NCBI GenBank assembly: GCA_038064975.1
Contig: JBBTRX010000007.1
Span: 59,026 to 123,025 of the forward strand
DNA from: Patescibacteria group bacterium
GTDB taxonomy: Bacteria; Patescibacteriota; Minisyncoccia; UBA6257; 1-14-0-10-40-38
DNA: 64,000 bases
Direction of reading: 5' to 3'
Both the position numbers and the translations under genes were made by a program. This document shows, one piece after another, positions 830-64,000 of the stretch (position 1 is its first letter; every line of letters begins with the position of its first letter). The notes beneath the pieces were generated by a model, which did no database searches, was not told where the DNA came from, and saw nothing but the letters and a program-made list of their open reading frames with translations.

Positions 830-858
830 AGAAAAATAAAACACCCCAGCACGTGGGG
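830..858 (-). terminator. Rho-independent terminator after tRNA-Asn
   Basis: Minus-strand hairpin CCCCACGUGCUGGGG followed by UGUUUUAUUUUU. Confidence 0.6.
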
Positions 859-908
859 TATTCTATTTTGCTCCCGAGCCAGGGATCGAACCTGGGACCG
901 TCGCCTTA

Positions 909-1459
909 CACTTGTCCTACTATTACTAATAGGGGTGGACTATATCATCGCCCATGAAGGGCGCGAGGTACTTCGCCTGCATCAATTAATATTTGATCGG
1001 CTACTCCCTTGCGGGATAGTCTCTACACCTTCTCTGATTACTATCAGAGCTTGGCTCGGGATTGCCCTTGGAAAGGGGTTTCCCCGAATTCACCTCGTTT
1101 GCAACCTAGATTGCTCTAGGAGGCTGCGTTATGCCGGCTTCCACTTCGCGATGACAATTGGCGCATATCAGGATACATTTATCGAGTTCTGATCTCACCC
1201 TCTCCCATGATCTGGTATAACCTTTATCTCCTACGCCGAAATCTTTTTCAGCTGGATTCAGGTGGTGAAAATCAAGAGCTCCTTGATATTTTTCGTATCC
1301 GCATATCTGGCATTGCCCGCCTTTGTAGGCAATAGCCATTGTTTTGATTTTGCGCCGGCGTTTTGCCACTGCACGAATAAGTTCTTCTCGCCGATCGGCA
1401 TATGTCCGCTTGTCAGCCATATATGGTAATTTTACCATTTTATAAGCCAAAGCGTGTTC
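909..1459 (-). mobile_element. Group I intron (551 nt) in the tRNA-Asn anticodon loop, with an HNH homing-endonuclease ORF
   Basis: It lies between U35 and U36 of the tRNA and ends with a 3'-terminal G. About 200 nt of ORF-free sequence at 909-1105 is long enough for a catalytic core. Confidence 0.6.
1106..1450 (-). CDS. HNH homing endonuclease (intron-encoded)
   Basis: Translation has CQICGY...HHLNP...CANCH, an HNH/zinc-finger nuclease motif. The ORF starts 9 nt inside the intron. Confidence 0.7.
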   Translation of the reverse strand: MAYKMVKLPYMADKRTYADRREELIRAVAKRRRKIKTMAIAYKGGQCQICGYEKYQGALDFHHLNPAEKDFGVGDKGYTRSWERVRSELDKCILICANCHREVEAGITQPPRAI

Positions 1460-1559
1460 ACAGGGCGCCGCTCTACCGCTGAGCTACTCGGGAATATTGA
1501 GTTATAGGCTGTTTTGTAAACAGCGTTACTATTATAATGAACTATACTTAAATCGCAAT

Positions 1560-62880: not shown

Positions 62881-63165
62881 TTACCTAACTATGAGTGCTT
62901 GCCTTACAGTTGCCCCAATCTTACGCGGTCCGACAAATGCCGAACTGACGCATCGTGACTTTAAGGCTCCACGACGAACACCTTCAAATGAAAATGAATC
63001 GACACCGACTATTCTCTTTAAAAAAGAAGAATAATCAAAGTTTAATTGATCCACGAGCAGCTTCCGCTACCCGTGCCTTGTTACGACTTAGCCCTTGTCA
63101 CCGAACCTACCCTAATCCAGCAAGCTGAACTTTAGGTATTCCCGGCTTCCTTGACTTGACGGGCG

Positions 63166-63700
63166 AATATTTTCTCAAAAACTGAGAATGAATGTTCCCA
63201 CTGCACAGACGGATTTCCCGTATGCAGCGAGCTCAATGCATCGTTTGCTTTAATGTGAGCAAGCTTTGTAAGCCTGAGTCGGTAAGATGTTCCCCTTCTT
63301 TGATTGCATCCATAATTTCGCAGAAAACTTTGAAATCATGCCTCTTAGATGGAAAACGTAACGGATATTTCTTGAAAAACGGAATAATAATGTTTTCCAA
63401 GTCTTTCCGATTAGCGACTTCAAACCGGTAGCAATGCTGGTGATTTTTTCTACTATCTTTCTGGAAATATACATTTCCACACTGGAAAAAATCTTTTACA
63501 GCATCAAGGACTGTCTTGTCTTTTTCTACCAGCTTGATATAGAACCGTGGTTCTATTCTTGCTCGCCTGATTCGTTCCGTAGATTCATTGATATTGCGAA
63601 CATACGCAGTAAAGCTTCCTTCGCCATCAACTAATCCAACGATATAATCAGGATTAAACATTGTATTGAGTGAGGGCCTTCTTCCGACCTTATATCGGAA
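63166..63700 (-). mobile_element. Intron-like insertion (probable group I intron) in 16S near E. coli position ~1395; 5' boundary uncertain
   Basis: Canonical 16S sequence resumes at CGCCCGUCA (plus 63165 downward). The insertion contains a complete LAGLIDADG ORF. Confidence 0.5.
63233..63661 (-). CDS. LAGLIDADG homing endonuclease (single-motif, I-CreI-like size)
   Basis: N-terminal YIVGLVDGEGSF LAGLIDADG motif; 142 aa. Confidence 0.75.
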   Translation of the reverse strand: MFNPDYIVGLVDGEGSFTAYVRNINESTERIRRARIEPRFYIKLVEKDKTVLDAVKDFFQCGNVYFQKDSRKNHQHCYRFEVANRKDLENIIIPFFKKYPLRFPSKRHDFKVFCEIMDAIKEGEHLTDSGLQSLLTLKQTMH

Positions 63701-64000
63701 TACTATGCCTCAGCTGACTTCTGACGCTGCGTTAGTTTTTATGATACCACGGCATCTTGCCATGGACAGCCATCAGATCTCCACAGGTCACGTAATATAC
63801 TATTCCAAACATCCGAGACGAACCTTTTCCCGTGATCTTCCTTATCCTCACCGCCCACTGATAAGTCGATCGATTCTCCGCGTGTTGCGGATACGTCTTG
63901 GCTGTTTTTTGCCGACAGATCCTCCATCTCGCCCCTTCACAGAGGCGGACTATCTTTGGCTACGCTCCGACTAGACTTCATCGGAGGAGTGGATTCAAAC

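Follow-up and report, generated by a model that had tools for sequence, protein, structure and literature searches.

The window analysed here, a 64-kb stretch of DNA (64,000 nucleotides), most probably carries a functional tRNA-Asn(GUU) gene interrupted between tRNA positions 35 and 36 by a self-splicing group I intron, with an HNH homing nuclease encoded in the P1 loop of that intron. We put the probability of this reading at about 0.85. The number of intron-split tRNA types known in bacteria rose from the four classical ones to 21 with the work of Williams (2020; bioRxiv 10.1101/2020.01.27.920355), and according to Nakagawa et al. (mSystems 2026; PMC13011429) one of those types is 'Asn.4Ug', which tFind sometimes miscalls as Thr.2Ug. 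Among 95 complete genomes of Patescibacteria, Nakagawa et al. report 15 tRNA-Asn(GUU) genes that a group I intron splits at 35/36; they place these introns in subgroup IA, and find that four tRNA-Asn introns of more than 500 bp encode HNH (PF01844) endonucleases. Using introns from genomes other than that of the window, they obtained self-splicing in vitro at 35/36 and sequenced the product, and a mutant with omega-G changed to C lost ligation. Because this class has been described and tested by these authors, the present locus, read correctly, is of a kind already known; it is an ordinary further copy of the published class. An earlier note on this DNA had remarked that the case differs from the textbook introns of tRNA-Leu and tRNA-fMet, which is correct, and the case has since been published (PMC13011429).

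Both exons, the intron and the HNH ORF are encoded on the minus strand of the window (Table 1). Read as RNA, the 5' exon is UCCCGAG UA GCUC AGCGGUA GAGC G GCGCC CUGU and the 3' exon is UAA GGCGA CGGUC CCAGG UUCGAUC CCUGG CUCGGGA G. Joined in silico, they give a 72-nt tRNA that ARAGORN calls tRNA-Asn(gtt), with a 7-bp acceptor stem without mismatch (U1-A72), G73, normal D and T arms, and an anticodon stem of five positions with a single G27.A43 mismatch; CCA is not encoded at the 3' end. The two halves had been recognised in the earlier note as a tRNA-Asn with a perfect acceptor stem, G73 and D and T arms, and ARAGORN's acceptance of the spliced 72-nt molecule agrees. At default settings, ARAGORN reports zero tRNAs across the 64-kb window. 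The intron-aware search that the note had proposed recovers the 551-nt intron, at c[870,1493], though it calls the product Thr(UGU), i(33,551), with the intron two bases further upstream. Default tRNA finding therefore misses this split tRNA-Asn, and intron mode returns it as Thr. A tRNA-Asn missed in this way affects estimates of genome completeness in Patescibacteria, as Nakagawa et al. have noted before (PMC13011429). A promoter-like and a terminator-like sequence bracket the split gene, each a pattern match only from a consensus scan.

Table 1. Features of the split tRNA-Asn gene, its intron and the HNH ORF in the window. Percentages of standard pairs were counted by projecting the window's helices onto a MAFFT alignment of 72 loci and are lower bounds, since that alignment blends two core variants.
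Feature	Position	Strand	Basis
Promoter-like TTGCGA-16 nt-TATAAT, some 38 nt before the tRNA 5' end	1531-1558	(-)	Consensus scan, 10/12 matches; pattern match only
tRNA-Asn 5' exon, nt 1-35 in standard numbering, ending C32 U33 G34 U35	1460-1493	(-)	Sequence; ARAGORN on spliced product
P1 5' strand, C1463 U1462 G1461 U1460 / G1459; splice after U1460	1459-1463	(-)	Pairing with 1128-1124; conservation
Group I intron, 551 nt, omega-G at 909	909-1459	(-)	RF00028; ARAGORN intron mode; terminal G in 72/72 loci
HNH endonuclease ORF, 104 aa, in the P1 loop, extending over the guide sequence and into P2	1106-1420	(-)	Pfam HNH E = 5e-4; homologues; codon-position identity
Internal guide sequence (P1 3' strand) CGCAG, in Thr-Gln codons of the HNH ORF	1124-1128	(-)	GCAG in 72/72 loci
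P2 hairpin CCUAGA-GCAA-UCUAGG	1105-1120	(-)	97% standard pairs in 72 loci; several compensatory pair types per position
Ribozyme core, P9 with GUAA loop	916-1097	(-)	Rfam alignment; pair counts in 72 loci; fold z-score
P3	1097-1092/969-964	(-)	80% standard pairs, 72 loci
P4	1087-1082/1061-1056	(-)	99% standard pairs, 72 loci
P5	1077-1073/1069-1065	(-)	Rfam alignment
P6	1055-1053/1029-1027	(-)	92% standard pairs, 72 loci
P6a	1049-1043/1038-1032	(-)	Rfam alignment
P7	1021-1016/943-938	(-)	96% standard pairs, 72 loci
P7.1	1015-1006	(-)	99% standard pairs with covariation, 72 loci
P7.2	about 1001-975	(-)	Extra hairpin between P7 and P3'
P8	963-949	(-)	77% standard pairs, 72 loci
P9	933-916	(-)	83% standard pairs, 72 loci
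tRNA-Asn 3' exon, U36 to G73	871-908	(-)	Sequence; ARAGORN
Terminator-like hairpin and U-run, directly 3' of the tRNA	833-869	(-)	Consensus scan; pattern match only

Relatives of the ORF were found in 134 species-level genomes, nearly all labelled Patescibacteria, and 80 genome loci were fetched from these. In 71 of the 80, a split tRNA of the same kind encloses the ORF, so the arrangement is not a product of chance. Six further loci run into contig ends, with the 5' exon still present in four of them, and three (L017, L067 and L078) are arranged otherwise. Comparisons over 72 loci are of the window and the 71 other loci. The closest tRNA exons, 88-89% identical, belong to three Candidatus Harrisonbacteria MAGs and differ from those of the window by base changes in the acceptor and T stems that compensate each other; the nearest HNH copy is also in a Candidatus Harrisonbacteria MAG.

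The group I core is readily recognised. Rfam RF00028, a search suggested in the earlier note, scores 59.3 bits at 1184-916 on the minus strand, where the gathering score is 50 (E = 1.7e-12; 253 of 253 model positions), and thus places a core in the intron above threshold. The model alignment is correct from P3 onward and misplaces P1 and P2 inside the ORF; we rejected that placement, at 1184-1150, which has low posterior probabilities and lies away from the conserved guide sequence. Compensatory changes are seen across the 72 loci in P2, P3, P4, P7.1, P8 and P9. P7, GACUAU/AUAGUC, is nearly invariant and matches the family consensus AGACUA...UAGUC, its G-C pair being present in 72 of 72 loci, and it is the putative guanosine-binding site. 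Between P7 and P3' stand the two extra hairpins P7.1 and P7.2, which would fit the published assignment of the class to subgroup IA. The stretch between the guide sequence and the 3' exon has a more favourable fold than shuffled sequences (z = -2.89).

P1 is formed by C1463 U1462 G1461 U1460 G1459 pairing with G1124 A1125 C1126 G1127 C1128, with U1460.G1127 as the wobble. Both strands, CUGU (C32 U33 G34 U35) and GCAG (1127-1124), are the same in all 72 loci. The adjoining pair, between the first intron base and the base 5' of GCAG, is standard in 57 of 72 (G-C in 47, A-U in 8, C-G in 2) and mismatched in 15. At the 3' end of the ORF, GCAGC is invariant in every locus and precedes a hairpin with a freely covarying stem. 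The helix is short, at 4-5 bp, which counts against our explanation, and its strands are about 330 nt apart because the ORF lies between them. In the ORF-less homologues at L017, L067 and L078, where the introns measure 186-242 nt, P1 is a plain hairpin, CUGU/C..GGCAG, with the same GCAG (CCUGU/CGAGAAGGCAGC, CCUGU/CGGUUAGGCAGC and CCUGU/CAGAAGGCAGC, the slash marking the splice site). This plain hairpin identifies the HNH ORF as an insertion in the P1 loop. Another candidate for P1, a hairpin just after the splice site (UGUG with CACG), has a 2-nt loop and an A-U pair instead of the wobble, and was dropped given the ORF-less homologues.

The pairing of P10 is less clear-cut. In the window copy U36 and A38 alone find partners, A37 is mismatched, and AUAAC offers a partial partner for UAA; inspection by eye saw no conservation of P10 across the loci, and a 3-bp partner, UUA for the 3' exon UAA, occurs in loci with the Ile codon AUU. 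Of the P1 and P10 pairings that the earlier note had wanted folded, P1 is therefore found, with a distal GCAG, while P10 is weak and by eye unconserved. Given the weakness of P10, the exons are probably aligned by the anticodon stem, as in the Anabaena pre-tRNA. For the intron of that pre-tRNA, Zaug et al. (1993; cited in PMC3984707) reportedly described a requirement for exon pairing, the exons being held together by the anticodon stem.

The longest ORF begins with TTG at 1450, 9 nt past the splice site, and this is the start that the earlier note had given for its complete HNH ORF. The complete ORF stands, but the start common to all homologues is the ATG at 1420, 39 nt into the intron, which yields a protein of 104 aa; no obvious ribosome-binding site precedes it. 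Towards its other end the ORF doubles as ribozyme, with the Thr-Gln codons ACG CAG forming the guide sequence, later codons in P2, and the stop codon UAG (1108-1106) within the 3' strand of P2. The window protein alone scores 20.6 bits against Pfam HNH (PF01844), just under the curated cut-off of 21.4, and 26 of 30 family members match that model at E <= 0.01. In the 30-sequence alignment C37, C40, H52, H53, C86, C89 and H90 (104-aa numbering) are invariant and N88 is kept in at least 90%, so that CxxC...HH...CxNCH, together with the basic N-terminal segment AVAKRRRK, is invariant or nearly so. Homologues at E <= 0.001 form 1511 clusters at 90% identity. Pairwise identity averages 0.81, 0.90 and 0.46 at codon positions 1, 2 and 3, which indicates that purifying selection acts on the protein. 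An NCBIfam search with the protein gave no meaningful match. The RNA anatomy, its conservation and covariation, and the purifying selection on the protein are established by the present comparisons.

We propose a model where a single precursor transcript covers both exons and the intron, in a host that would be a groundwater Patescibacterium, most like Harrisonbacteria. The exon bases C32-U35 would pair with the guide GCAG (1127-1124), with U35.G as the wobble, and the P3-P9 core would fold. An external guanosine would attack after U35, the terminal G909 would then replace that guanosine, and ligation of the exons would produce the anticodon loop CUGUUAA. We expect the window copy to splice in this way by analogy with the homologues for which assays have been published. 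The HNH product would most likely act as a homing endonuclease, cutting tRNA-Asn genes that lack the intron and thereby spreading it, as its family membership and gene neighbourhood suggest.

The strength of conservation also lends itself to a different view of the HNH protein, namely that it is kept for a role other than homing, such as maturase-like help with RNA folding or a host function. Identity among the best 120 of the 1511 clusters is about 69-90% to the query over many Patescibacteria lineages, unusually high for a selfish nuclease; the AVAKRRRK segment is invariant and purifying selection is strong. With P1 split by the ORF a folding helper is conceivable, and the nearest solved relative in a PDB sequence search is, weakly (E = 0.0013), the HNH domain of a group II intron maturase. 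We nevertheless consider a non-homing role unlikely. Forms of the intron without the ORF exist, and homologous introns self-splice without protein (PMC13011429). The HNH family also stands free beside intronless tRNA-Asn genes in phage arrays, which fits a DNA-targeting mobile nuclease, and a conserved target, the anticodon region of the tRNA, would also explain a conserved protein.

Slightly less probable again is that the locus is a decaying relic, in which splicing of the intron has ceased or the tRNA is unused, another tRNA-Asn serving the cell. Introns with homing endonucleases commonly degenerate once fixed, and our view of this genome spans 64 kb. Against decay, the core helices, guide sequence, omega-G and tRNA stems are all intact, the HNH ORF is full length with every motif residue kept, and the promoter-like and terminator-like patterns are in place. 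Default ARAGORN adds no further tRNA for the window, and Nakagawa et al. (PMC13011429) report that a genome seldom has a given tRNA both with and without an intron.

Comparison across loci places the splice junction at position 35/36, that of Asn(GUU). At the Asn junction all 72 loci have G as the last base of the intron, whereas a Thr junction would require omega-G at a base that is A in 27 of the 72; the group I rule thus holds for all copies at the 35/36 junction only. ARAGORN alternates between Asn i(35) and Thr i(33) over the homologous loci, with Thr in most, and once the loci are set to a common register 68 of 69 spliced products come out as tRNA-Asn(gtt). Compared with phage tRNAs after masking of the anticodon, the window tRNA best matches a tRNA-Asn, and in that phage comparison set U1 is found in 44 of 53 tRNA-Asn against 0 of 17 tRNA-Thr, all 17 of which begin with G1. 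A tRNA-Thr(UGU) with its intron two bases further upstream (33/34), as ARAGORN's intron mode calls for the window and most homologous loci, and as the window copy, with U before the intron and G at its end at both junctions, would itself allow, is highly improbable and already close to refuted, given the omega-G counts, the P1 pairing of C32-U35 with GCAG that sets the wobble at U35 and not U33, the Asn-like tRNA body (U1-A72 and G73), and the identical ARAGORN/tFind miscall as Thr(UGU) at 33/34 documented for homologues whose spliced Asn product was sequenced (PMC13011429). The splice preferred in the earlier note, with loop CUGUUAA, is borne out by the omega-G in 72 of 72 loci and by the P1 pairing; its caution that the Thr form (CUUGUAA) could not be excluded from sequence no longer applies, the omega-G and P1 comparisons and the published sequencing of homologues having excluded it.

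[quoted passage not shown] Nothing essential sets the two apart; the window comes from a draft groundwater assembly and the published introns from 95 complete genomes. The Synechocystis PCC 6803 tRNA-fMet intron encodes I-Ssp6803I (Bonocora & Shub 2001, cited in PMC3984707). Unlike the window's intron, it interrupts tRNA-fMet at 33/34, its nuclease is of the PD-(D/E)XK and not the HNH type, and it belongs to subgroup IC3. The IC3 introns of Azoarcus tRNA-Ile and Anabaena tRNA-Leu resemble the window's in being small, of a self-splicing class and equipped with a short P1 made from anticodon-loop bases, and they rely on the anticodon stem to bring their exons into line (Zaug et al. 1993), but they have no ORF and no P7.1 or P7.2 and are inserted at 34/35 or 36/37. 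The core motifs of the window, AAUUCGGGGAAAC... and AAGGUGUAGAGACUA, are very similar to those of what we take to be the Azoarcus intron sequence.

What the window and its relatives add is small but concrete. Comparative sequence alone proves the Asn junction, and at least 134 species-level genomes have the HNH-bearing form, with 1511 clusters (90% identity) matching its protein, against four cases in complete genomes. Two points apparently go beyond the portions of PMC13011429 drawn on here: the HNH gene is mapped to the P1 loop, where it overlaps the guide sequence and P2, and the same nuclease family occurs free-standing and adjoins tRNA-Asn genes in phages.

Two variants of the ribozyme core are joined to an HNH ORF with identical guide sequence and P2. 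Variant A, ...CGAGGUGAAUUCGGGG..., has P7.1 and P7.2 and is the type of the window; variant B, ...UUCGGGAUAACGGUG..., is without P7.1. The loci set against the other genome loci for core variant are L001, L018, L021, L023, L024, L034, L035, L037, L040, L044, L047, L053 and L058. ORF-less introns are known for both variants. The pattern hints at recombination between an endonuclease module and a ribozyme module.

At the three loci arranged otherwise, the HNH gene stands free beside a tRNA-Asn with an ORF-less 35/36 intron, just upstream in L078 (L078:1494-2103) and L067 (L067:1502-2144) and just downstream in L017 (L017:1184-1818). These copies are without the C-terminal ITQ(L/P)P that overlaps the guide sequence in the intron-borne copies, which would fit an ending set by the RNA rather than by the protein. 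Their arrangement may be said to resemble the 'collaborative homing' of phages, as of T4 SegB in a tRNA gene cluster (PMC2330249; reviewed in PMC3984707), where the endonuclease is likewise free-standing beside its target. SegB is a GIY-YIG enzyme, whereas that of the window is HNH and its gene sits inside the intron.

The same HNH family, at 44-70% identity, is encoded on 131 IMG/VR viral contigs, many of them 100-470 kb long. In the 80 viral loci that were read (the L083-L161 series), the HNH gene lies in a phage tRNA array, and in 48 of the 80 the nearest tRNA is an intronless tRNA-Asn(GUU); as many of these phages are mutually related, the 48 are not independent events. There is often an overlap between the HNH stop codon and the first 9 nt of the adjacent tRNA-Asn, and several viral loci have a tRNA-Asn on both sides of the HNH gene. 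Together with the free-standing copies at L017, L067 and L078, this would fit an HNH lineage tied to the tRNA-Asn gene that moved into the intron. It is tempting to speculate, at somewhat less than even odds, that the enzyme is a nuclease specific for tRNA-Asn genes which travels between phage tRNA arrays and Patescibacteria. In that case, three stages in the invasion of an intron by a homing endonuclease gene would already be present in public data: free-standing by an intronless tRNA-Asn in the 48 of 80 phage loci, free-standing by a tRNA-Asn with an ORF-less intron in L017, L067 and L078, and in the P1 loop, with C-terminal codons recruited as guide sequence and P2, in the window and 71 other loci. 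Spread of this intron driven by the HNH nuclease would then be far commoner than the four complete-genome cases suggest.

Some labels sit oddly with the sequences that bear them. Four contigs with a Patescibacteria-type split tRNA-Asn (L003, L004, L067 and L071) come from MAGs labelled Peribacteraceae, Gammaproteobacteria or Simkania, through either mis-binning or spread of the element beyond the phylum. A 22-kb contig classed as viral (L082; IMGVR_UViG_3300001199_000352) carries a full split tRNA of the Patescibacteria type with the HNH gene in the intron (ARAGORN i(34,544)), and may be a misclassified cellular contig or a Patescibacteria phage.

A second insertion lies at the far end of the window, in the 16S rRNA gene; it has a LAGLIDADG ORF, as PMC13011429 describes for rRNA introns of Patescibacteria. 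The 3' end of the 16S rRNA (Rfam positions 1390-1520) is at 63166-63052 on the minus strand and is preceded by the insertion (region 63052-63751). A search of this insertion with RF00029 at E <= 1 gave no match. According to PMC13011429, no group II introns were found in Patescibacteria, and a group II-like 16S intron with a LAGLIDADG gene would therefore be an exception. The insertion holds a LAGLIDADG_1 ORF (63661-63233, minus strand; Pfam E = 1.3e-18), a match to Rfam group-II-D1D4-1 at 63751-63675 on the minus strand (40.8 bits against 35) and a possible domain-5-like hairpin at about 63225-63190.
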